Shown: in pieces, positions 1 to 11,898 of the stretch
Layout: the number at the start of each line of letters is the position of its first letter
Position numbering within the stretch: the stretch's first letter is position 1
DNA from: an uncultured Aquificales bacterium
Lineage (GTDB): Bacteria; Thermosulfidibacterota; Thermosulfidibacteria; Thermosulfidibacterales; Thermosulfidibacteraceae
Assembly: GCA_964453345.1 (NCBI GenBank)
Contig: CAYVOC010000043.1
Coordinates: forward strand, 1 to 11,898
Length of the DNA: 11,898 nt
Reading direction: 5' to 3'
Translations under genes and position numbers: made by a program
Notes under the pieces: model-generated
Told to the model about the DNA's origin: nothing
Database searches by the model: none
What the model saw: only the letters and a program-made list of their open reading frames with translations

Positions 1-903
1 AAAGGGACACAGGCGTCCCTGATAGGTGTCAAGCTCCTCCATCCTCTGCTCTATCCTTCTGAGAACATCCCGCTTCCTCAGGCACCAGGAGGGGGCCACG
101 AGCCTCTCAGCGGGGGCTTCCCCAACAAGCCTGTGTATCACAATATCGCTCTTCAGATGCTCCAAAAATTTCACGCACACATCCACATACTCATCAAGCT
201 CAAAGAGCCTCACCTCACCCCTTACATACATCTCCTCAAGGGGCGTATCCTTGAGAACGTGCAGATGATGTATCTTCACCCCATCAACCCCGACGGCTGA
301 TAGAAAGCAGGCCGTCTCCATCATATCCTCAAGATCCTCCGTGGGCAGCCCCAGTATCACATGGGCGCACACCCTTATACCCCTTTTTTTAGACCTCAAA
401 AGGGCATCGAGAAAGTGGGAAACACCGTGCCTTCTGTTCATCCACCTGAGGCTCTTGTAGTGGGAGGACTGAAGACCAAGCTCCAGCCACACCTCATAAT
501 CCCTGCTGAACTTCTCAAGCAGATCCAGCACATCCTCCGGAACGAGATCGGGCCTTGTGCCCACGATGATCCCCACAATTGAATCGCTTATAAGCGCTCT
601 TTTATAGAGCCTTTCAAGCTGGTCAACGGGGGCGTAGGTCGAGGAGTAGGCCTGAAAGTAAACCATAAAAAGCTCCGCCTTGTAGCGCCTCTTCGCGAAC
701 TCCATCCATCTTTTTACCTGCTCCTCTATAGGCAGGGTGTGGGGCATAACACCGGAGGCAAACCTATCACAAAAGATGCACCCTCCATCACCGAGCCTGT
801 TCTCCCTGTGGGGACAGCCCAAACCAAGGTTTACGGGAATCCTGTGGACCCTTACACCGTATCTGCTTCTGAGATACCTGTTGAAGGAATAATACCTATC
901 CAT
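1..903 (-). CDS. TIGR01212/YhcC-family radical SAM protein (3' end runs off the window; not in the ORF track)
   Basis: Manual translation from ATG at 903: [51 protein letters not shown]... It carries the CX11CX2C cluster motif, then [45 protein letters not shown] and ends ...[10 protein letters not shown] at base 1. The frame is open for 301 codons. The start overlaps the speB stop (ATGGATAG). Confidence 0.9.
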
Positions 904-1720
904 GCAGCAGTATGGCCAGCTCCCTCACCAAGGATGCCCCGACCACCGCCGAGTTCCCCGTGGGATCAACAATGGGACAGAGCTCCACCAGATCACCACC
1001 CACAAGCCTCAGCCCCCTCAACCCCACGAGAAAGTCCACAAGCTCCCTGTAAGAAACGCCTCCGGGCTCAGGCGTTCCAAGGCCAGGACAGTATGCAGGA
1101 TCAAGAACGTCTATATCGAGGGTGAGATACACTGGCCTGTCTCCCAAAAGCCGCTTGAGATCACCCGGATCGGGAAGGGCAAAGGGATGAAAGAAGAGAA
1201 AGTTTTCTTTGGAATACTCAAACTCCTGCCTGAGGCCCGATCTGACTCCCAGCTGACACACATCCAGTCCAAGCTCGGCAACCCTCCTCATCACCGTGGC
1301 ATGGGATAGCCTTTCCCCGAGGTATGTATCCCTCGTGTCCGTGTGGGCATCTATGTGGACGACGGCAAGATCCCTTCCGTAAAATTCAGCATGGGCCTCA
1401 ACCAGAGGCAGGGTAGCAAGGTGCTCCCCCCCGATGGCCAAAAGCCTCATTCCCTTACTTATCACCTCAGCAGCCCTCTCCCTTATCAGCCTCAGGGATC
1501 CCGCAAGATTGCCCAAGGGAAGCTCCACATCCCCCAGATCCGCCACGGACAGCTCCTCAAGATCGGCGTCCATATAGGGGCTGTAGGTTTCTATGCCGTC
1601 CGAGGCCTTTCTTATTTCAATAGGCGCAAACCTGGTTCCCGGCCTGAAGCTCACCGTGGCCTCAAGGGGAACCCCCAGTATCGCCACTTTCCCCTGATCC
1701 TTCGTCCCCAGAAACCTCAT
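896..1720 (-). CDS. speB: Agmatinase (ureohydrolase family)
   Basis: Ureohydrolase motifs [28 protein letters not shown] and TPEPGG; 274 aa. Confidence 0.9.
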
Positions 1721-2939
1721 CTCTCTCCACCCTTATCCTTCTTATTCTCCTTTTCACCGTATCCACCACCGTAAAGCGCCACCCCTTGTATTCCACACTC
1801 TCCCCGCACTTGGGGACCCTCCCGAACAGATGCAGAACAAATCCCCCTGCCGTCTCAACGCCTATATCATCCGGGCACTCCACATTCAAAAGGGAACAAA
1901 GCTCCTCCACCGGACAGAGGGCGTCAACTATGTATCCATCGCCGTCCCTCTGTATGAGCACCCTTTCCCGATCATACTCGTCCCATATCTCCCCAACCAG
2001 CTCCTCAAGTATATCCTCGAGGGTGACAAGCCCCTCAAGGGCGCCGTATTCGTTTATCACCATGGCCATATCGATGCCCTTCGTCTGAAACTCCCTCAAC
2101 AACTCCTGAACGGGCTTGGTCTCCGGGACAAAATAGCAGGGTCTTATAAGACTCTTAAGATCCGCCCGCTTCAGCCCCTTAAAAACGGGAAGCAGATCCG
2201 TTATCTTTATGTAGCCTATCACGTTATCCCTTTCCTTCTCATAAACCGGCACCTTTGAGAATCTCTCCTGCAGGATTCTTCTTTTAAGCTCCTCCCACGA
2301 AGTGTTGATCTCAACCATGAAAACATCCGGCTCCGGAACCATGATCTCCTTCACCTGAAGCTCAGTGAACCTGAAGACCCTGTATATCATCCTCCTCTCC
2401 CTCTCCTCCAGAAGCCCCCGGCTCTTCGCCTCATCCACCAGAACCTTGAAGTCCGCCTCCTTTATGCACGCCTCTTCACTCCCCACGATTCTTGTAACCG
2501 CATTTGCCACCGACTCCAGCAGAATCCTCAGAGGGGCAAGGAGGAAGGAGAAGAGCATTATAAAGGGGGCGCTGAGCCTCGCCCAGATCACGTTGTTCTT
2601 GACCGCCACAACCTTTGGAACAAACTCCCCGTAGATGAGCAGAAACAGCGTGGTCACAAAGACAGAGGCTCCAACCCAGCGCTCACCAAAAACATCCATA
2701 AAAATTGAGGCGGATATGGAGGATATGGCCACATTGACCACCTCATTACCCAGAAGAACCGTGCTGAGTATCCTCTCCTTCCTCTCCAGAAGCTTGGCCA
2801 CAACACCAGAGAATAACCCGCCCTCCCTTGCAATTCTCCTTGCGGTAACATCGTCTATGGAGAAGAAGGCGGTTTCGGATCCCGAAAAAAAGGCGGAAAG
2901 GTTGAACAGGATAAAGAGCAAAACAAACCTACCCAACAA
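1662..2939 (-). CDS. Hemolysin-like/CNNM family protein (DUF21 membrane domain + CBS pair + CorC/HlyC domain), probable Mg2+/Co2+ transport
   Basis: [32 protein letters not shown]...[51 protein letters not shown] start with GGAGGG upstream. Confidence 0.92.
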
Positions 2940-4263
2940 TGATCTCGCCCTCCGGGTATCTTATCCTCTCCCTCTCGGAATCGGTGGCCATGGCGACCAC
3001 CGCCGTCAGGGGTCCCACCCTCCCCACAAGCATTATAAAGGAAATAAGCAACTTGGATACGGTGTGAAGCGTTGGGGTGATCCCCGTGCTCAGCCCAACC
3101 GTTCCGAAGGCGGACACAACCTCAAAGGCGACCTTTATAATGGGTTTATTCTCCACTATGGCCACCACAAAGGTGCCCCACAGGACAAACAGCAGGGCCA
3201 GAAAACCTATGGCAACGGATTTTTTCACCACATCCTCTGAAAACCTCTTTTTGAATATCACCGCGTCTCTTTTGTTTCTTGCGGTTGCAAACACGCTTAA
3301 AGTCACAACCAGAAAGGTTGTGGTCTTTATACCGCCTCCCGTTCCGCCCGGGGACGCCCCTATGAACATGAGAACTATCAAGAGGAACCAGGTTACCTCG
3401 TGCATCTTCGATATATCAACGGTATTGAACCCGGCCGTTCTCGGCGTCACGGACTGAAACAGAGAGGCCAGAATCTTTCCCTTAAGCCCTAAGTGAGAGA
3501 GGGCGTTATTCCACTCAAGAAGCCCGATCCAAAAGGCGCCGGCCACTATCAGTATAACCGTCATCAAGAAAACCACCTTGGTATGGAAGGAAAGGGCGGC
3601 CCTCTCCCCCCTCCTTCTGGCAATAAAATACCTGTATAAATCATAAAGGACGGGAAAGCCTATGCCGCCGGTTACTATGAGAAAGCAGACGGTGAGATTG
3701 ACCACCACCGATGAAGCAAAGCCGCTCAAGCTATCCCTGTATAGGGAAAAGCCCGCATTGCAGAAGGCCGATATGGAGTGAAAAAGGGCCGAATATACAG
3801 CCTTGGACGGGGGAATACCTGCGCCGACAAACCCCCAGAAGAGGAAAAGGGCGCCGAGAAGCTCTATAACAAAGGTGAAAAGAAAGATGTGGACGATGAG
3901 GGAACGCAGGTTCTCCATGTTGTAAAAGTTCAAGGCATCCTGAAGGATGAGTCTGCCCCTCAAGGACATCCGCAATCCGAAGGCCACGGCAAAAAAGGCG
4001 GACATGGTCATTATGCCGAGACCGCCTGCCTGAATCAGGGCAAGCACAACCATCTGCCCGAAGCGTGTCAAAAAGCTGCCGGTGTCAACAACGATGAGTC
4101 CCGTAACGCACGTTGCAGACGTTGCGGTAAAGAGCGCATCAACGAAGGGCAATCCCCTTCCGTCCACCGTGGCCGCCGGAAGCATCAAAAGAAATGTTCC
4201 CACAAGAATAGCGGCGACGAAACTTCCGACGATTATCCGGGCAGGAGATAGTTTACCTTCCAT
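2929..4263 (-). CDS. ktrB: KtrB/TrkH-family potassium uptake membrane subunit
   Basis: Four pore-loop Gly motifs (TCVTGL, FCNAGF, PRTAGF, FGTVGLS), plus [23 protein letters not shown] and the C-terminal YPEGEIIVG. Confidence 0.9.
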
Positions 4264-4711
4264 CCTTCACAAGCTTTTTCAGCTCCTCCCAAAAATCGGA
4301 AATATCCTTGAACTGCCTGTATACGGAGGCGAACCGCACGTATGCCACTTCATCCACCTGCTTTATAAGCTCCATCACCTTCTCACCTATGATTCTGGAG
4401 GGGACCTCCTTCTCCCCGAGATTCAACAGGTATCTTTCCACCTCATCAGCGATCTCCTCCTGCTTCTCCACGCTAACCGGCCTCTTCTCAAAGGCCTTCC
4501 TGATTCCGGTCAAAAGCTTCTCCCTGCTGTAGGGTTCCCTTCTTCCGTCCTTCTTGACCACCATGGGCATGGTCTCATCTATCCTTTCAAAGGTGGTGAA
4601 GCGCCTGCCGCACACCACACATTCACGCCTGCGCCTTATGGAGAAACCGTCCTTTCCTGATCTCGTCTCCACAACCCTCGTCTCCCCGGACAGGCAAAAG
4701 GGGCACCTCAT
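4253..4711 (-). CDS. nrdR: Transcriptional repressor NrdR
   Basis: MRCPFC...[18 protein letters not shown] zinc ribbon, ATP cone VVKKDGRRE, and [15 protein letters not shown]. Confidence 0.97.
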
Positions 4712-5178
4712 CCTCTCTTCACCTGTATCAGCTCTATGCCCGCCTCCTTCAGCATATCCGCGGAAAGCTCGTCGGGATAGCCCTCAAGATAGTATATTCT
4801 CTCAATCCCGGCATTTATGAGCATCTTGGTGCAGATTATGCAGGGAAAGGTGGTTGAGTAGAGCCACGCCCCCTTGACGCTCACCCCGTGAAGGGCCGCC
4901 TGTATTATGGCGTTCTGCTCCGCATGAAGCCCCCTGCACAGCTCGTGCCTCTCCCCCGATGGAACCCCAAGTTTCTCCCTCAAACAGCCCACCTGGGCGC
5001 AATGGGCTATGCCGCTGGGAGCGCCGTTGTATCCCGTGGCAAGTATCCTCCTGTCCTTAACAATAACAGCGCCCACCCTGCGCCTGAGGCAGGTGGACCT
5101 TGTGGCAACAAGGCGGGCTATCTCTATGAAATACTCATCCCAAGAGGGTCTGCCCTCACTCACATCAGGCCTCGCCAA
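4708..5178 (-). CDS. dCMP deaminase / ComEB-like cytidine deaminase family protein
   Basis: [30 protein letters not shown] and PCIIC zinc motifs. Start uncertain: TTG 5178 or GTG 5163. Confidence 0.92.
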
Positions 5179-6436
5179 GCGCCTCCCTGTATTCCCTCAA
5201 AAGATCCGGATAGAGGGGATAGCGCTCACAGAGATCCCTCACCTTGGAGTAGACCTCCTTTCTAACCTCCGGCTTATCAACATTCTTCAGCACATAGGCT
5301 ATGAGATCCCCTATCTCCTCCATCTCGGCTTCCTTCATCCCCCTGGTGGTAAGAGCCGGAGTCCCTATGCGGATACCGCTGGTGACCGTGGGCTTCTCCG
5401 GATCAAAGGGGATCATGTTCTTATTCACGGTTATCCCGGCCTCCTCAAGGGCCTTCTCTGCAACATCCCCGGTTATCCCTATGGGCCTGAGATCCACCAG
5501 CATGAGGTGGTTGTCCGTGCCCCCGGAAACAATCCTCAAACCATGCTTGGCGAGTCTCTCAGCCAGCGTCTTGGCGTTTTTAACTATCTGCCTCTGATAC
5601 TCCTTAAACTCCTCCGAAAGCGCCTCCTTAAAGGCGACCGCCTTGGCGGCAATCACATGCATGAGGGGACCGCCCTGTATGCCCGGAAAGACCGTCTTAT
5701 CTATAACCTTCGCAAACTCGCTTCTGCACATGATCATACCACCCCTGGGTCCCCTGAGGGTCTTGTGGGTGGTGGTGGTCACAAACTCGCAGTGGGGAAC
5801 GGGAGAGGGATGAACCCCTGCAGCAACAAGCCCGGCTATGTGCGCAATATCGGCCATAACATAGGCGCCCACCCTATCCGCTATCCGCCTGAACCTCTCA
5901 AAGTCTATCACCCTGGGGTAAGCGCTTGCACCGACCACTATCAGCTTGGGCCTGTGCTCTACAGCAAGCTTCTCCACCTGATCGTAGTCTATGGTCTCGG
6001 TGTCCCTTCTGACGCCGTAAAAGACCACATTGTAAAGCTTGCCCGAAAAGTTGACCCTTGCACCGTGGGAAAGGTGCCCCCCGTGGGCAAGGTCCATGGC
6101 TAAGATGGTGTCTCCCGGGTTCAGCACCGCCATATAGACCGCCATGTTCGCCTGGGTTCCAGAGTGGGGCTGAACATTCACATGCTCCGCCCCGAAAAGC
6201 CTCTTCGCCCTCTCTATCGCAAGGTTCTCAGCCATATCAACGAACTGGCATCCCCCGTAGTAGCGCTTACCGGGATAGCCCTCGGCATACTTGTTGGTCA
6301 TAACGCAGCCCTGGGCCTCCATAACCGCAGGGCTTGCGAAGTTCTCGCTGGCTATCATCTCAAGCTTATAGGCCTGCCTTTCAATCTCACCGAGTATGGC
6401 CCTCGCTATCTCAGGATCCACATCCCATAGCCTCAT
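5165..6436 (-). CDS. glyA: Serine hydroxymethyltransferase
   Basis: [38 protein letters not shown]-lysine motif [28 protein letters not shown]. Confidence 0.98.
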
Positions 6437-6891
6437 CTTCCCCCTCCAAGAATCTCCTTTTCTATCTCCTCAAGCTTACCCAGCCTTCTCTCGTGCCTTC
6501 CCCCCTCAAAGGGGGTCTCAAGCCACACCCTAACTATCTCGGCGGCCACACCCTCCCCAAGCACCCTGCCCCCAAGGGCAAGCACATTGGCGTCGTTGTG
6601 CAGCCTGCTCATTCTCGCCGTGTATTCATCATGGCACAGGGCGGCCCTCACCCCGGGAAACCTGTTGGCCACAATGCTCATACCTATCCCGGTGCCGCAG
6701 CACAGAATTCCCCTGTCCACCTCTCCAGAGGCAACCGCCCTTGCAACCTTGGCGGCGTAAAAGGGGTAGTCCACCGACTCTTCGGAATCGGTCCCAAAGT
6801 CCAGAACCTCAACCTCCATCTCCTCAAGCAAACGCCTCACAAACTCCTTGAGGCGATACCCACCGTGATCCGAAGCTATGGCGACCCTCAC
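6433..6891 (-). CDS. rpiB: Ribose 5-phosphate isomerase B
   Basis: [46 protein letters not shown] start overlaps the upstream TGA. Confidence 0.96.
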
Positions 6892-7208
6892 AGCGCCTCC
6901 TCCCCTCTATCACCGGTCCTTATTCTAACCACATCAACCACATCAACAACATAGACATACTCGGTTGTGGCCCCCTCCTTCAGAACATCAACAAAAAGAT
7001 CCAGCACATCCTCCGCCATATCGTCCGTCACCACCACCTCAACCTTAAGCCTCGGGATAAAGCCGCCGGAAAAGCCAAGCTCTCTCAGAGGCCCATCCTC
7101 GTCAAACTTGACCTCTCCCACAGTTATGCCGCTCAGACCCATCTCCGAAAGCCTGTCCTTAAGCTCGTCAAGCTTAAAGGGCCTTATTATGGAAACCACC
7201 TTCTTCAC
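6888..7208 (-). CDS. Degenerate P-II (GlnB/GlnK-like) protein, 106 aa
   Basis: From GTG 7208: [34 protein letters not shown]...[11 protein letters not shown]...[13 protein letters not shown] aligns end to end with the 112-aa P-II, but the T-loop and B-loop motifs are replaced. The track's extension to 7262 has no P-II similarity. Confidence 0.85.
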
Positions 7209-7216
7209 GCTGGCAA

Positions 7217-7245
7217 GATTTAACAGAAAGCCGCCCAAAATGCAA
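7217..7245 (-). promoter_or_regulatory. Possible sigma70-type promoter for the P-II-like...radical SAM operon
   Basis: Minus strand reads TTGCAT-17 bp-TAAATC with a TGn extension, ending 8 nt before the GTG at 7208. The -10 match is weak. Confidence 0.25.
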
Positions 7246-7286
7246 AGAGTTGCACAGCGCAAGCTTTTAGGATTAAAAGGTATCCT

Positions 7287-7805
7287 GTGAAAGAACGCAT
7301 CCTTCTCATAGGCGGAAACGGAAGCGGCAAAACCAAGGCCGCCCTAAAAATGGGAAGCCATCTTCATCCGAGGCTGTATGTGGCAACCGGCACCGCCCTT
7401 GATGCAGAGATGAGAAGAAAAATAGATGTCCACAAAAGGGAGCGGCGCGGATGGGACACTCTTCAAAGCCCAACCTTAGACCCCAAACAGATAGAGTTCG
7501 CCCTCGCCAGCAAGAGCTACAGATGCGCCGTTGTGGACTGCGTATCCTTTCTCATCCACAACTGCATGGCAAAGGGCATGGACCCCCAGCTGCGGCTCCG
7601 TGAGGCCTTAGAAGCGATGGAACAGGTGGAGAGGCTCATCATCGTATCCAACGAGGTGGGATTATCCCTTGTGCCCACAAACAGCCTGGCAAGAAGATTC
7701 ACAAAGACCCTTTCCGAGATCAACCGGTATCTAACCGAAACTTGCAACAGAAGCTACTTGGTGGTTGCAGGAAAACTCATCAGCCTCAGTCAGGATCCGG
7801 AATAA
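7287..7805 (+). CDS. cobU: Bifunctional adenosylcobinamide kinase / adenosylcobinamide-phosphate guanylyltransferase (CobU/CobP), divergent
   Basis: P-loop [51 protein letters not shown]; 172 aa is the typical size. Confidence 0.88.
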
Positions 7806-8712
7806 CGTAGGGAAACTCCCTTACCACCCTGCGCCTCAATCCCAAGGCCCTCTTAAGCCTGAAAGCAGCCATGGCCCTTTTTATTCTCGGCCACGCCCTT
7901 TTGGCTGCAACATATCCTGCCTCAAAAAGCTCGTCCTTCGCCTCAAACTGGTTCCACAGATAGGATCCCACCTCCGGCTCAATGAGCACATCACACTCCT
8001 CGCGCCTCATCCAGCCGAGATAATACCGGGCTATATCGTCCGAACGGTAAACCACATCAAAGGCGTTACCCAGCCTTTCACAAAGCTCAAGGCTCTTGCT
8101 CACCCAGACCCCTATAACAAAATCCGCCCCCAGAACCCTTGCCGCAAAGGCGGGAACCACATCCACCCAGCCGCCGTCGGTAAGAAGCATATCGCCCCAC
8201 CTGATGGGCGGAAATATCCCGGGTATAGAGGCGCTTGCGGCAACCGCCTTAATTATGGAACCCCTCGCAAGGATCACCTCCCTGCCCGACAGCAGATCCG
8301 CGGCAACCGCAGCGAAGGTGATCCTCGTCTCCTCTATCAAGGTGTCATGGGGAATAAACTCCCCAAGGGCAGTAAAAAAGGCCCTTTCGGAAACAAGGGA
8401 TGTGGTCGCCATGGCCTTGGACAGGGCTATGCCCTTGCTGATCAGGCGCATGAACTCCTGAAAGGGGTTGCTTTCCCTTTCGGAAAACTCCGAACTCGCC
8501 CTTTTAAAGGACTCGCTCTCAAGGGACCTGTGCAGATCCTCCCACAGCACCTTCCACGAGGGGACCTGGGCGTATCTGGCGCCCACAATGGCGCCTATGG
8601 AGGTGCCGCAGATGATACTGGGCCTGAACCCCACCTCCTCAAAGAACTTCAGCACACCGATGTGGGCTATGCCCCTTGCCCCTCCCCCACCAAGAGCAAG
8701 GGCAACCCTCAT
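7786..8712 (-). CDS. Patatin-like phospholipase (RssA/NTE-like)
   Basis: LALGGGGARGIAHIGVL oxyanion motif, GTSIG nucleophile, ASASIPGIFPP and LTDGG catalytic Asp are all intact. Confidence 0.93.
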   Translation of the reverse strand: MRVALALGGGGARGIAHIGVLKFFEEVGFRPSIICGTSIGAIVGARYAQVPSWKVLWEDLHRSLESESFKRASSEFSERESNPFQEFMRLISKGIALSKAMATTSLVSERAFFTALGEFIPHDTLIEETRITFAAVAADLLSGREVILARGSIIKAVAASASIPGIFPPIRWGDMLLTDGGWVDVVPAFAARVLGADFVIGVWVSKSLELCERLGNAFDVVYRSDDIARYYLGWMRREECDVLIEPEVGSYLWNQFEAKDELFEAGYVAAKRAWPRIKRAMAAFRLKRALGLRRRVVREFPYVIPDPD

Positions 8713-8975
8713 CTTCCTCCCCAGAGCAGATCCCTGAACCTATCCCTAACCCTCTCCTCGGGGTAGGCCCTCTTCACCTCATCCTCGGTAAATCTGAAGG
8801 GATAATTCTCCATAAAATCGATCAGGGTCCTATAGGCAAGAGAGATCTCATCAATGCGATCCCTGTTCTCCTTAACCCTCTTGCGATACAGATCCTTAAG
8901 GCGCCTTATGCTAACAGGGGGCGTTATCCCCAGAACCTCAAGGGCCCTTTCAATCTCCTCCCGCAAGCCTCGCAA
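8709..8975 (-). CDS. Small J-domain-like protein lacking the HPD motif
   Basis: ALEVLGI..PVSIRRLKDLYRKRVKE...IDEISLAYRTL matches the J-domain helix I-II-III pattern, followed by ENYPFRFTEDEV. No HPD. TTG start; stop forms an ATGA overlap with patatin. Confidence 0.65.
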   Translation of the reverse strand: MRGLREEIERALEVLGITPPVSIRRLKDLYRKRVKENRDRIDEISLAYRTLIDFMENYPFRFTEDEVKRAYPEERVRDRFRDLLWGGR

Positions 8976-9525
8976 CCCTCCTGAGCCTCAGCTCCTTCTC
9001 CCGGAAGAAAAAGTCTAAAGACTCGTAAACAGCAGACGTGAGCCTCACGGACCCCTGGGCCTCGCAGAGCCTTCCCACCATACCCCTTATGCGGGAAAGC
9101 ATATCCCGGGGCCAGTCGGCGCACTCCGCAACCTCAACATCAATAGTGGGCCTGCCAAAGTGCCTGTTCAAATTGTCAAAACCCGCCTTCAGCTCAGAGA
9201 ATCTGGCATCACAGCTCACAAGAAGATCGGCTCCCCCGCAAGCCGCAAGGATATAGTGGATGCCCAAGGAAAGCTCTCCATAACCTATGACCTTGTTATA
9301 GACATATTTCTTTGCAAACTCTACCAGATCATTCTCAATCCTCAGACAGACGGGATTCAACTCCTTCAAAAGCTGGGCGCTCCAGGTCCTCCAGGGTTCA
9401 TCAAGATTGTGAATCTCTGCAATCACGAGATCAGACACCACAAACCCCTCTTTAAGCCTTCCCTCGGCGGCCTCATCCTTGCAGGCTGCAAGGACAAAAG
9501 AAGTCTCCGCATAAAACATACTCAC
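8950..9525 (-). CDS. PIN-domain-like (VapC-like) protein with degenerate active site and ~55-aa C-terminal extension
   Basis: FYAETS (cf. YxDTS), VVSDLVIAEI, FAKKY, LGIHYILA (cf. DAxHxAxA), LLVSCD, N...G.P.I follow PIN motif order and spacing. ATGA overlap with the upstream gene. Confidence 0.6.
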   Translation of the reverse strand: MSMFYAETSFVLAACKDEAAEGRLKEGFVVSDLVIAEIHNLDEPWRTWSAQLLKELNPVCLRIENDLVEFAKKYVYNKVIGYGELSLGIHYILAACGGADLLVSCDARFSELKAGFDNLNRHFGRPTIDVEVAECADWPRDMLSRIRGMVGRLCEAQGSVRLTSAVYESLDFFFREKELRLRRVARLAGGD

Positions 9526-11295: not shown

Positions 11296-11553
11296 CTACT
11301 CCTTATAGGCATCTTTTCTCCACAGGATATGGTGAATCAGCAATATTTTCTTCTCATCATCTATGGTGGTGAGTATTCTTAACTTGCCAAGCCTGTATCT
11401 CCACATCCCTTTAAGTCCACCCTTCAAAGCTCCACCTTTAGATCTCGGGGATTCAGCTACTTTTTCAAGAAAAGAGACAACTCTCTCAGCAAGCTTCAGA
11501 TCAAGAGCATCCAATTCTTTAGCAGCCGTTCTGGTAAAAATTATTTCATACAA
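11296..11553 (-). CDS. Type II toxin, RelE/StbE (RelE/ParE superfamily)
   Basis: YEIIFTRTAAKELDALD...RV..FL...PRSKGGALKGGLKGMWRYRLGKLRIL...RKDAY; 85 aa, basic. TTG start overlaps the antitoxin stop by 13 bp. Confidence 0.9.
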   Translation of the reverse strand: MYEIIFTRTAAKELDALDLKLAERVVSFLEKVAESPRSKGGALKGGLKGMWRYRLGKLRILTTIDDEKKILLIHHILWRKDAYKE

Positions 11554-11792
11554 CCCTTCTTTCTCTCCTCAAGACGTTTCTTAATTTCCTCAAAAGGCAC
11601 AAGCTCCTCCTCTCCCAAAGCCACTCTTTCCATGCTTCTCTGTAGTAAAAAAACTTCCTCTAAGTCATCAAGATACTTCCTTAGAGCCTCTTTAACAAAA
11701 AAAGCTTTAGATCTCTTAGTTTGACGAGCCAACCTATCCAATCTTTCGTAATCCTTCTCATCAAGGTTTATCGTAAACACCCTGTATCCCAT
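11541..11792 (-). CDS. Ribbon-helix-helix (CopG/RelB-like) antitoxin, 83 aa
   Basis: MGYRVFTINLDEKDYERLDRLARQTKRSKAFFVKEALRKYLDDLEE...VPFEEIKKRL. ATG 11792 follows GAGGAGG. The track's longer start (11855) runs through the promoter. Confidence 0.88.
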   Translation of the reverse strand: MGYRVFTINLDEKDYERLDRLARQTKRSKAFFVKEALRKYLDDLEEVFLLQRSMERVALGEEELVPFEEIKKRLEERKKGCMK

Positions 11793-11802
11793 TGCTTCCT
11801 CC

Positions 11803-11849
11803 TCAACTGCTTTGCCAATATAATATATTACATCAACGTGCTTTGTCAA
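11803..11849. repeat. Imperfect direct repeat flanking a palindrome (candidate TA operator)
   Basis: TCAAC-TGCTTTGCCAA (11803-11818) and TCAACGTGCTTTGTCAA (11833-11849) flank the perfect palindrome TAATATATTA (11821-11830). Confidence 0.6.
11820..11849 (-). promoter_or_regulatory. Sigma70-type promoter of the TA operon
   Basis: Perfect TTGACA (11849-11844) with TATATT at 16-bp spacing or TATTAT at 18-bp spacing, about 30 nt upstream of the antitoxin ATG. Confidence 0.75.
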
Positions 11850-11898
11850 ATTCAAAAGAGAAGCTGTTCGAAAAATCTTGAGAGGGGGTTGAGCCGGA

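Follow-up and report, generated by a model that had tools for sequence, protein, structure and literature searches.

A P-II protein with both effector-binding loops rewritten at the head of an order-wide rpiB operon in the Thermosulfidibacterales

The stretch of DNA analyzed here (the window; 11,898 nucleotides) encodes a P-II protein in which the T-loop and the B-loop have both been rewritten and in which the scaffold and the C-loop are kept under purifying selection. The gene is best explained as an effector-blind "pseudo-P-II" that is maintained for a role independent of these loops, a reading to which we assign a probability of roughly 55%. Few metabolic sensors are as widespread as the P-II proteins, in which conservation is normally highest in the effector loops. 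The features of the gene and its borders are as follows:

6888..7208, minus strand: degenerate P-II gene, 106 amino acids, no internal stop, PF00543 match of 58.6 bits
7062..7106, minus strand: T-loop remnant, residues 35-49, 15 unrelated acidic residues in place of the 20 canonical residues 35-54, net charge -3
7050..7052, minus strand: canonical position 58 (residue 53), arginine replacing the 2-oxoglutarate-binding lysine
6957..6977, minus strand: B-loop remnant, residues 78-84, EGATTEY (7 amino acids) in place of TGKIGDGK (positions 83-90)
6912..6926, minus strand: C-loop RIRTG, residues 95-99, canonical R101 and R103 retained
6888..6891, minus strand: GTGA overlap of the P-II stop and the rpiB GTG start, 4 bases, read from the sequence
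7217..7245, minus strand: promoter-like TTGCAT-17 nt-TAAATC with TGT before TAAATC, recognized by eye, ending 8 nt upstream of the GTG

The reading frame runs from a GTG start at 7208-7206 to a TGA stop at 6890-6888. A longer frame of 124 amino acids with a TTG start at 7262 was rejected since every homologue starts at MKK; public gene calls for the variant disagree, with 106 amino acids in two and 116 in four of six cluster members. By our own reading of the variant calls, a population variant at 7234 exchanges G for D inside the TTG extension. An assembly artefact could be ruled out, as a metagenome contig of independent origin matches with 99.2% identity and zero indels across 2061 bases, and four metagenome runs are likewise free of indels. 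A degenerate pattern of the new T-loop, searched against metagenome contigs, matched a single contig, which is near-identical to the window.

Affiliation of the window protein to the P-II family is supported by the PF00543 match (E 8.8e-16, bit score cut-off 25, residues 1-99) and by the fact that the same family was matched in all six variant sequences scanned, at best with an E-value of 6e-19. Its best solved relative is the P-II protein 2eg1 (E 1.3e-19). An AF2 monomer model (pLDDT 88.2, pTM 0.78) predicts the beta-alpha-beta-beta-alpha-beta order (E2-8, H10-22, E28-36, E50-60, H62-76, E85-89), and Foldseek aligned this model to solved P-II structures with TM scores of 0.84-0.89, the highest being that of 3mhy_B; together, model and alignment place the subunit in the ferredoxin-like fold. 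Model confidence is lowest at the T-loop remnant, with pLDDT block means of 78 and 62. Scores against the GlnB equivalog NF008111 (68.2, cut-off 202) and the GlnK equivalog NF007946 (61.1, cut-off 181) were far too low for either assignment. The window protein gave no Pfam match at E<=10 to PstA/DarA, CutA, HisG_C or DUF2007, and among the six variants the only non-P-II matches at this threshold were HisG_C (0.031), DUF2007 (0.071) and DUF5633 (0.29), each in one sequence.

For the comparison of the loops, the 112-residue canonical P-II encoded in the same genome served as reference, the numbering of which is the same as that of solved 112-residue chains. The alignment comprised seven variants (from five genomes plus two metagenome proteins) and 20 other rows, namely 17 canonical and three transitional forms of the genera g4 and g2. 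It bears out what the earlier note had read from the window, namely an intact open reading frame on a P-II scaffold with an acidic T-loop replacement, K58R and a changed B-loop. Q39 of the T-loop base GFGRQKG and K90 are kept in none of the seven variants, and the T-loop tip YRGAEY with the tyrosine-51 site is absent from all of them. Position 58 is R in five and K in two variants, as compared to K in 20/20 other rows, and position 9 is R in 6/7. V64, R101 and R103 are kept in all seven. Passages of PMC8395244 describe Q39 as Mg ligand, G87 and K90 as ATP contacts in the B-loop, and R101, R103 and V64 as contacting ATP from the adjacent subunit; Tyr51 is named as the T-loop modification site in a passage of PMC4285133. 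A role of K58 in 2-oxoglutarate binding is stated in parts of PMC6908673 and PMC3198391, and the former describes K58N and K58M, exchanges to residues other than arginine, as abolishing this binding. These residue losses, together with the equivalog scores, agree with the earlier view that the protein is not a canonical nitrogen sensor.

What has replaced the canonical loops is itself poorly conserved. The rewritten T-loops comprise 11-20 and the B-loops 5-8 residues, and pairwise identity in the T-loop amounts to 23% among the seven variants versus 95% among canonical orthologs, and in the B-loop to 15% versus 100% among eight canonical rpiB-linked orthologs. Conservation among the variants peaks in the C-terminal segment (79%, versus 88% in canonical orthologs), and a stretch L-x-E-L-G-[FI]-S is partly conserved in four of the five sequences of genus g1. 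Against an effector-blind reading, this stretch and the retained R101 and R103 could point to a surviving ligand or partner site. Common to the new loops is their acidity: the T-loop remnant carries a charge of -1 to -5 in all seven variants and the B-loop of 0 to -2. Whole-protein charges are -8 to -11 for the variants; the 17 canonical rows range from 0 to -4, and the three transitional g4/g2 forms carry -7, -7 and 0.

The gene heads a run of nine co-directional, overlapping or abutting genes, in accordance with the earlier description of a P-II gene coupled to rpiB by GTGA and leading a housekeeping/ion-transport operon. Downstream of the P-II gene these are:

6433..6891, minus strand: rpiB (ribose-5-phosphate isomerase B), PF02502, E 3.4e-61
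5165..6436, minus strand: glyA (serine hydroxymethyltransferase), PF00464, E 6.4e-177
4708..5178, minus strand: dCMP/cytidine deaminase, PF00383, E 1.1e-25
4253..4711, minus strand: nrdR, ATP-cone and Zn_ribbon_NrdR
2929..4263, minus strand: trkH-type cation transporter, PF02386, E 1.2e-69
1662..2939, minus strand: CNNM/CorC-type transporter with CBS domains, PF01595, PF00571, PF03471
896..1720, minus strand: agmatinase/arginase family gene (speB-like), PF00491, E 4.2e-76
1..903, minus strand: MnmL/YtqA radical SAM tRNA-modification gene, TIGR01212, 361.5 bits (cut-off 180), extending past the window edge

The ribosome-binding site of rpiB, GGGGAGGAGG, lies within the final P-II codons. Part of the conservation seen in the final five residues may be due to this encoded site. 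The promoter-like layout upstream of the P-II gene is shared with the genomes G003, G005 and G004; a promoter scan of window positions 6300-7900 returned no promoter-like site. A Shine-Dalgarno sequence before the P-II gene was not found in any of the six genomes of the genera g1, g2 and g3 examined, that of the window included; one precedes the gene in all eight examined genomes of g4 and of the families f2 and f3. The eight sequencing runs listed as containing this sequence come from five studies and are all DNA runs. As the earlier note had observed, no ammonium-transporter or glutamine-synthetase gene is adjacent, and neither family was found among the 14 other open reading frames scanned in the window. 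The genome also encodes GlnD and a second P-II, which is fully canonical (120.7 bits). A connection of the loop loss with a loss of AmtB or GlnD was rejected, as these are present in 16/18 and 17/18 genomes of the order, respectively, and so was a connection with the rpiB start/stop overlap, which is also found in ligand-competent copies (genus g4 and genome G010).

A P-II gene lies immediately upstream of rpiB in 16 of the 18 genomes of the order, where it heads an eight-gene cluster (P-II, rpiB, glyA, dCMP deaminase, nrdR, trkH, CNNM, speB). Of six further genomes checked to this depth, which span all three families, five have the cluster conserved; G004 is without trkH. Outside the order, rpiB or glyA was near P-II in none of 80 loci of other phyla, taken from the best 80 of 587 relatives, and a search of genome contigs with the variant alignment likewise revealed no variant P-II among these best 80. 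A literature search, limited in reach and judged by the titles listed, did not return a glnB-rpiB/glyA operon. The order-wide P-II-headed cluster, the canonical copies in sister families and the graded loss of the loops are newly described here.

This gradation can be followed at one and the same gene position. In the families f2 and f3 the rpiB-linked P-II is fully canonical; in genus g4 the T-loop is two residues shorter and changed at its tip, with the ligand residues kept; in genus g2 the T-loop is rewritten and the B-loop is kept as TGKPGDGK; and in the genera g1 and g3 both loops are rewritten. Among 1.84 billion representative proteins, only five were matched at E<=1e-30, four of which are variants and one a tandem artefact; the last stage was seen in two genera and four representative clusters. 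The closest canonical relative by score is the rpiB-linked P-II of G016 (54% identity), as compared to 42-44% identity of the variant to its own genome's canonical paralog. A single clade of the 18 rpiB-linked P-II proteins was not rejected (delta lnL 0.20, p-AU 0.483); since deep branches of the P-II tree, built on 112 columns, are unresolved, orthology rests mainly on gene order. The variant descends from a canonical GlnB-type P-II that was already in front of rpiB, which makes the linkage to rpiB an ancestral trait, independent of the new loops. The conservation among orthologs that the earlier note had raised accordingly holds for the rpiB linkage and does not extend to the new loop sequences. 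A new P-II subfamily with conserved new loops, one of its proposals, receives no support, as the loops differ in sequence and length, the clade is tiny and the linkage predates it.

The variants form a clade with a support of 100/99 and a stem length of 1.01 in the P-II tree, and their tip lengths of 0.15-0.94 (six of seven at 0.44-0.94) contrast with a median of 0.085. Within the same genomes dN amounts to 0.27-0.52 for the variants versus 0.02-0.04 for the canonical paralog, so that the variant evolves 10-15 times faster. dN/dS is 0.16-0.39 in nine of ten variant pairs, those with a defined dS, values which are rough because dS is near saturation (0.87-2.88, one pair undefined). Of five polymorphic sites in populations, a small number of counts, four are synonymous; the sole non-synonymous variant, D38E, is conservative and lies within the T-loop remnant, and no indels occur. 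These ratios, together with a frame that is intact in five genomes and two metagenome proteins, rule out a pseudogene and uphold the earlier argument against simple decay. The graded series, the unconserved loops and the purifying selection in combination mean that the gene is not a pseudogene, and that it does not represent an old subfamily with a switched ligand either.

With canonical GlnB/GlnK proteins (2eg1, 3mhy, 1gnk, 1pil/2pii) the variant shares the Pfam family and the fold, as well as the N-terminal MKK...PFKLDE and the C-terminal RIRTG.RGEEAL, and outside the loops identity is about 40-50%; unlike them, it is without the T-loop base and tip and TGKIGDGK, has R for K58 and is strongly acidic. 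The rpiB-linked P-II proteins of the sister families (G009-G017) occupy the same place at the head of the same eight-gene cluster but keep every effector and T-loop residue, and a strong Shine-Dalgarno sequence is found in the ten leaders examined. When an engineered T-loop deletion of GlnZ (5ovo, DraG-GlnZ-delta42-54) is aligned to the variant, the T-loop shows only a short gap, and according to the title of the entry this shortened-T-loop body still forms a target complex; 5ovo, however, was made in the laboratory and retains B-loop and nucleotide site, both of which the natural variant lacks. PstA/DarA, SbtB, CutA and PotN also use the P-II fold without canonical ATP/2-oxoglutarate sensing. 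Each of these families is old and widespread and has conserved ligand sites of its own, whereas the variant clade is a recent two-genus offshoot nested among GlnB-type proteins, with unconserved loops and PF00543 as its only match above noise.

These observations can be combined into a scheme in which the anatomy, the orthology by position, the stepwise series, the faster rate and the selection are observed, whereas the trimer state, the inability to bind ligands, the placement of the loops and any present function are what we infer. The starting point was a normal GlnB-type P-II at the head of the order-wide rpiB operon. Within the family of the window, the target-contacting tip of the T-loop was altered in a first step. 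In a second step, the shared ancestry of two genera lost the T-loop base and the B-loop, which make up one side of the cleft for ATP/ADP/2-oxoglutarate. The protein would thereby no longer bind these effectors from its own half of the cleft, would not be uridylylatable because the tyrosine-51 motif is gone, and would have no canonical T-loop for reaching targets. Retained under purifying selection are the ferredoxin-like body, the C-loop and the basic cleft residues 9, 58, 101 and 103, now nearly all arginine. The replacement loops, free in sequence and always acidic, may, judging from their composition, occupy or cover the emptied cleft, thereby neutralizing these arginines. The outcome would be a signal-independent, "locked" P-II body, with any remaining activity exerted through loop-independent surfaces.

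Other explanations have to be weighed against this pseudo-P-II. P-II paralogs of E. coli form mixed trimers, and since a canonical paralog is encoded in the same genome, the variant might mix with it, lending its C-loop side (R101, R103, V64) to the T-/B-loop side of a neighbor without contributing a T-loop or an effector half-site of its own, so that each trimer would have fewer sensing sites and output loops. Loss of the own half of the site and retention of the adjacent-subunit half, as divided in the passages of PMC8395244, would fit such a modulator; yet the low identity of the two paralogs speaks against it, and the C-loop may also be conserved for structural reasons or because it forms salt bridges with the acidic replacement loops, which makes this reading an unlikely one. 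The acidic loops might, alternatively, constitute a new site for a cationic ligand or partner (K+, Mg2+, a polyamine or a basic protein), which would suit a conserved operon encoding TrkH, a CNNM/CorC transporter and an agmatinase, the acidity of all seven variants, the partly conserved g1 stretch and the purifying selection. Such a sensor is rather improbable, given that the loops vary in length and sequence from genus to genus and to some extent even within the genus, that the operon, cation genes included, occurs just as much with a canonical P-II, and that gene neighborhood and composition form its basis, with no cation-binding motif identified.

The rapid evolution and unconstrained loops, the rpiB ribosome-binding site and overlap inside the gene, the lack of a Shine-Dalgarno sequence and the GTG start in the window genome would all be expected of a functionless relic, whose frame persists in cis as first cistron of the operon and must only stay translatable and non-toxic. 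Small genomes usually delete dispensable DNA, however, and those in question measure 1.5 Mb; moreover, dN/dS is well below 1, conservation follows structural elements, population variants are mostly synonymous, and neither a stop nor a frameshift has appeared despite saturated synonymous sites, so that we consider a relic to have little likelihood. Similarly doubtful is a purpose-built signal-independent subunit, the acidic loops of which would mimic ATP/2-oxoglutarate, pair with the cleft arginines and lock the body, which would then constitutively regulate one of the proteins encoded in its own operon (TrkH, CNNM, SpeB, NrdR, RpiB or SHMT) or dominate mixed trimers formed with canonical GlnB. 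If true, the order-wide operon would point to an unrecognized P-II target in nucleotide-precursor or cation homeostasis.

The rpiB-linked P-II genes of this order represent a natural experiment, in which one gene at one operon position is seen at successive stages, with its body under selection throughout. They reveal the sequence in which a signal transducer is dismantled, the output going before the input. As a P-II that would be ligand-blind by nature, the variant may be used to probe what a loop-less body can do, and the order-wide linkage suggests that a P-II target may exist in nucleotide-precursor or cation metabolism.

The gene examined here is the following one.

7208 to 6888, minus strand: degenerate P-II gene, GTG start, 106 residues, stop-free frame.

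Residues 1-99 of its product matched the Pfam P-II family (PF00543) with E 8.8e-16 and 58.6 bits, where the cut-off is 25, and 40 P-II chains among the solved structures matched the product as well, with 2eg1 at the top (E 1.3e-19). An AlphaFold2 monomer calculated from an input alignment of 44 rows showed the P-II order of elements (mean pLDDT 88.2, pTM 0.78), was least confident in residues 31-50 (pLDDT block means of 78 and 62) and reached TM values of 0.84-0.89 against solved P-II structures in Foldseek. By profile and by fold, the protein belongs to the P-II superfamily. Alignment to the canonical P-II of the same genome (112 aa, whose numbering is used in the following) confirmed the loop changes reported in the earlier note: canonical positions 35-54 (20 residues) are replaced by 15 other residues, position 58 is Arg, and EGATTEY stands in place of TGKIGDGK. 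With scores of 68.2 for the GlnB equivalog (cut-off 202) and 61.1 for GlnK (cut-off 181), and with all defining features of these sensors failing except the C-loop, the view that this is not a canonical nitrogen sensor is upheld. An assembly error is ruled out by an independent metagenome contig that matched gap-free (99.2% identity over 2061 bases) and by contigs from four further runs, which contained zero insertions or deletions. The stretch is present in hydrothermal-vent metagenome runs.

The P-II stop codon overlaps the rpiB start as GTGA, as previously described. Same-strand genes then follow, overlapping or abutting, in the order rpiB, glyA, dCMP deaminase, nrdR, trkH, a CNNM/CorC transporter, agmatinase (speB) and a MnmL/YtqA radical SAM protein, while cobU lies upstream of the P-II gene in divergent orientation. 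Also in agreement with the earlier note, a scan of 14 further ORFs of the window revealed neither an ammonium-transporter nor a glutamine-synthetase family. In the order, a P-II gene lies immediately 5′ of rpiB in 16 of 18 genomes; the remaining two (82% and 92% complete, one of them read with 8 kb left out) gave no match to an rpiB query. Where the contig is long enough, the full series from P-II to speB is kept in the family of the source genome (f1; genus g1, genomes G001 and G002) and in its sister families f3 (G014, G016) and f2 (G011); in G004 (genus g2 of f1) trkH alone is missing. In 80 P-II loci from other phyla, the best of 587 relatives, neither rpiB nor glyA was found near P-II (0/80 loci, flanks of up to 6 kb per side). 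The P-II/rpiB start/stop overlap occurs in all eight f1 genomes shown. Since one f3 genome whose P-II is canonical has it too, the overlap does not track loop loss and was ruled out as its correlate.

Only the P-II-to-speB section of this neighbourhood is fixed: in G005, G001 and G003 (loci L021, L006 and L007) a rex-like redox repressor gene, not divergent cobU, lies 5′ of the degenerate P-II, and in G005 it comes after genes identified from reading translations as ATP synthase a and c subunits. If the agmatinase ORF is counted from the first ATG, it shares 59 bases with the end of the CNNM gene (1662-1720; other junctions 4-14 bases), and the true agmatinase start may lie further downstream. 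Elsewhere in the window, on the minus strand, positions 11296-11855 hold a type II toxin-antitoxin-like pair, an RHH/CopG-family protein of 104 aa (PF01402, E 9.3e-10) whose gene overlaps that of an 85-aa ParE-family toxin (PF05016, E 6.3e-11), and positions 8709-9525 hold two overlapping ORFs of 88 and 191 aa, between a patatin-like gene and a flavin reductase, with no Pfam or NCBIfam match.

Loop loss is graded across the order. The operon-leading P-II is wholly canonical in f2 and f3. In genus g4 of f1 the T-loop is 2 residues shorter and altered at its tip, with R38, Q39, G41, K58, G87 and K90 intact; in g2 it is rewritten save for its base residues and the B-loop TGKPGDGK is retained; in g1 and g3 both loops are rewritten. 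Intact orthologs of the last type, with the same rpiB linkage, were found in four g1 genomes and one g3 genome, and together with two metagenome proteins they make up the seven variants considered below. A profile of six variants scored 147-161 bits in these five genomes and at most 118 bits elsewhere in the 18-genome set of this order. When 1.84 billion representatives were searched with this profile, 8639 proteins came up at E<=0.001 and only five at E<=1e-30, namely four variants (P0003, P0127, P0128, P0129) and one 182-aa tandem partial duplication of canonical P-II. Among 5.8 billion proteins, a word-indexed search returned 1063 matches to the degenerate P-II at E<=1e-5, only two of them above 50% identity (98%, same species; 56%, P0003). 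Two 182-aa metagenome proteins, P0004 and P0130, consist of a partial N-terminal P-II copy joined to a complete canonical one; either tandem duplication or faulty assembly may account for them.

In a maximum-likelihood tree (65 rows), the seven variants form one clade (support 100/99) with a stem of 1.01 and tips of 0.15-0.94 (six of seven at 0.44-0.94), compared with a median tip of 0.085; tips of the canonical paralog in the same genomes measure 0.006-0.046. The backbone is unresolved because there are only 112 columns. A topology constrained to unite the 18 rpiB-linked proteins is worse by just 0.20 log-likelihood units (p-AU 0.483), so that a single origin is not rejected.

Relative to canonical orthologs, the pattern of constraint is inverted in the variants.

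Mean pairwise identity by segment (seven variants; eight canonical rpiB-linked orthologs)
Beta1-alpha1: variants 66%; canonical orthologs 77%
Beta2: variants 77%; canonical orthologs 91%
T-loop: variants 23%; canonical orthologs 95%
Beta3-alpha2: variants 44%; canonical orthologs 73%
B-loop: variants 15%; canonical orthologs 100%
Beta4: variants 59%; canonical orthologs 78%
C-terminal segment: variants 79%; canonical orthologs 88%

Conservation of the new loops among orthologs, which the earlier note had proposed to check, was thus not found (T-loop 23%, B-loop 15%). The loops vary in length (T-loop 11-20 residues, B-loop 5-8) and share a common composition and no common sequence; L-x-E-L-G-[FI]-S is common to four of five g1 sequences. 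The T-loop remnant has a net charge of -1 to -5 in all seven variants and the B-loop of 0 to -2. Whole-protein net charge is -8 to -11 in the variants, 0 to -4 in 17 canonical proteins, and -7, -7 and 0 in three transitional g4/g2 forms.

According to an extract of PMC8395244, ATP in P-II is contacted by Thr29′, Ile38, Gln39, Gly87, Lys90, Val64′, Arg101′ and Arg103′ (primes denote the adjacent subunit), with Phe92 against the adenine, and 2-oxoglutarate by the Gln39 and Gly41 backbone, Arg9 and Lys58; K58N and K58M abolish 2-oxoglutarate binding (extract of PMC6908673). The own-subunit side of this site is lost in the variants (Q39 0/7, K90 0/7) and the adjacent-subunit side is retained (V64, R101 and R103, each 7/7). 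Position 29 is T in three and V in four, position 9 is Arg in six of seven, and position 58 is Arg in five and Lys in two. The tyrosine-51 motif is missing.

Selection was assessed by Nei-Gojobori dN/dS between the five g1/g3 genomes, with ratios that are rough because synonymous sites are near saturation.

Pairwise substitution rates
Variant P-II: dN 0.27-0.52; dN/dS 0.16-0.39; dS defined in 9/10 pairs
Canonical paralog: dN 0.02-0.04; dN/dS 0.02-0.03; dS defined in 5/10 pairs
rpiB: dN 0.18-0.28; dN/dS 0.04-0.18; dS defined in 9/10 pairs

Even as rough values, the variant ratios are clearly below 1, and being far from about 1 they support the earlier argument against simple decay. Across the near-identical contig and the four runs, the degenerate P-II contains five variable sites, four synonymous plus D38E in the T-loop remnant (synonymous to non-synonymous, rpiB 7 to 1 and cobU 5 to 3). 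With about a quarter of sites synonymous, the chance of at least four out of five is approximately 0.01 by our own arithmetic on small counts. Selection continues to act on the fold, the C-loop and the cleft arginines, and the composition of the loops is kept acidic.

The source genome (1.5 Mb, 64 contigs, 99.92% complete) encodes GlnD and three P-II proteins: one canonical (120.7 bits), one paralog of 114 aa beside LUD-domain genes (83.2 bits) and the degenerate one (55 bits). AmtB (PF00909) was not found in this 99.92% complete genome; across the order, 16 of the 18 genomes carry one to four copies of this family. The third paralog (contig C23, 20615-20953, locus L002; 113-114 aa, beginning MKMIVAYVNPEKLWELKK) has orthologs in all three families, a non-canonical T-loop (GIGKPM...KHGAIPKFFPK) and a retained GDGK B-loop; in the source genome it adjoins a pair of LUD-domain genes, of which one also carries a 4Fe-4S domain. 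In the tree, the 15 rows of this paralog fall into a single clade (support 100/100, branch length 1.97), and the paralog may represent a separate P-II subfamily tied to lactate-utilisation-type genes.

Upstream regions were compared for window positions 7209-7286 and loci L005-L008, L011-L014, L021, L033, L035, L157 and L160. In the ten g4, f2 and f3 genomes examined, a TTTACA-type promoter-like site, which a promoter scan supports in two loci only (L008, L013), lies 5′ of P-II, followed by a leader, about 27-31 nt long, that carries a strong Shine-Dalgarno sequence. None of the six g1/g2/g3 genomes examined has a Shine-Dalgarno sequence before the P-II start. By eye, a -10-like element ends 8 nt 5′ of the start codon in G000 (the source genome), G003, G005 and G004, and in G001 the start overlaps the rex stop; the scan of the window gave zero promoter-like sites. 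If the by-eye element is real, the degenerate copies may be translated leaderless, a mode that is normally inefficient from GTG, the start codon in G000.

The reading we favour, at a probability of roughly 0.55, is that of an effector-blind, signal-independent P-II body, in which the acidic loops would neutralise the basic charge of the emptied cleft and any residual role would go through loop-independent surfaces. A canonical ancestral P-II headed the rpiB operon; in f1 its output surface was altered first and the effector-binding half-site was lost next in the stock of g1 and g3, leaving nitrogen signalling to GlnD and another P-II, canonical and extremely conserved. The degenerate gene itself was retained. 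The closest analogue is an engineered T-loop deletion of GlnZ, which, by the titles of the structure entries, still complexes with DraG.

That the protein serves nothing and its frame is preserved for the expression of rpiB, whose ribosome-binding site GGGGAGGAGG falls inside the final P-II codons, appears unlikely, and to the same degree it is improbable that the subunit joins canonical P-II in mixed assemblies and so thins out the sensing sites of the latter. Slightly less credible still would be a gained cation- or partner-binding function, which would fit the TrkH/CNNM/agmatinase context. A new subfamily sensing another ligand, as the earlier note had suggested, is not supported. The protein does not belong to the known ligand-switched P-II-like families either: in six of six variants Pfam identifies PF00543 alone. 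The loops lack the conservation seen in those families.

As an effector-blind body, the degenerate P-II would represent a natural pseudo-sensor inside the P-II family, with intermediate stages surviving in sister lineages. Among the titles listed by one literature search there was no mention of canonical P-II linked with rpiB-glyA and cation genes, and this linkage may be a more useful lead than the degenerate protein itself.
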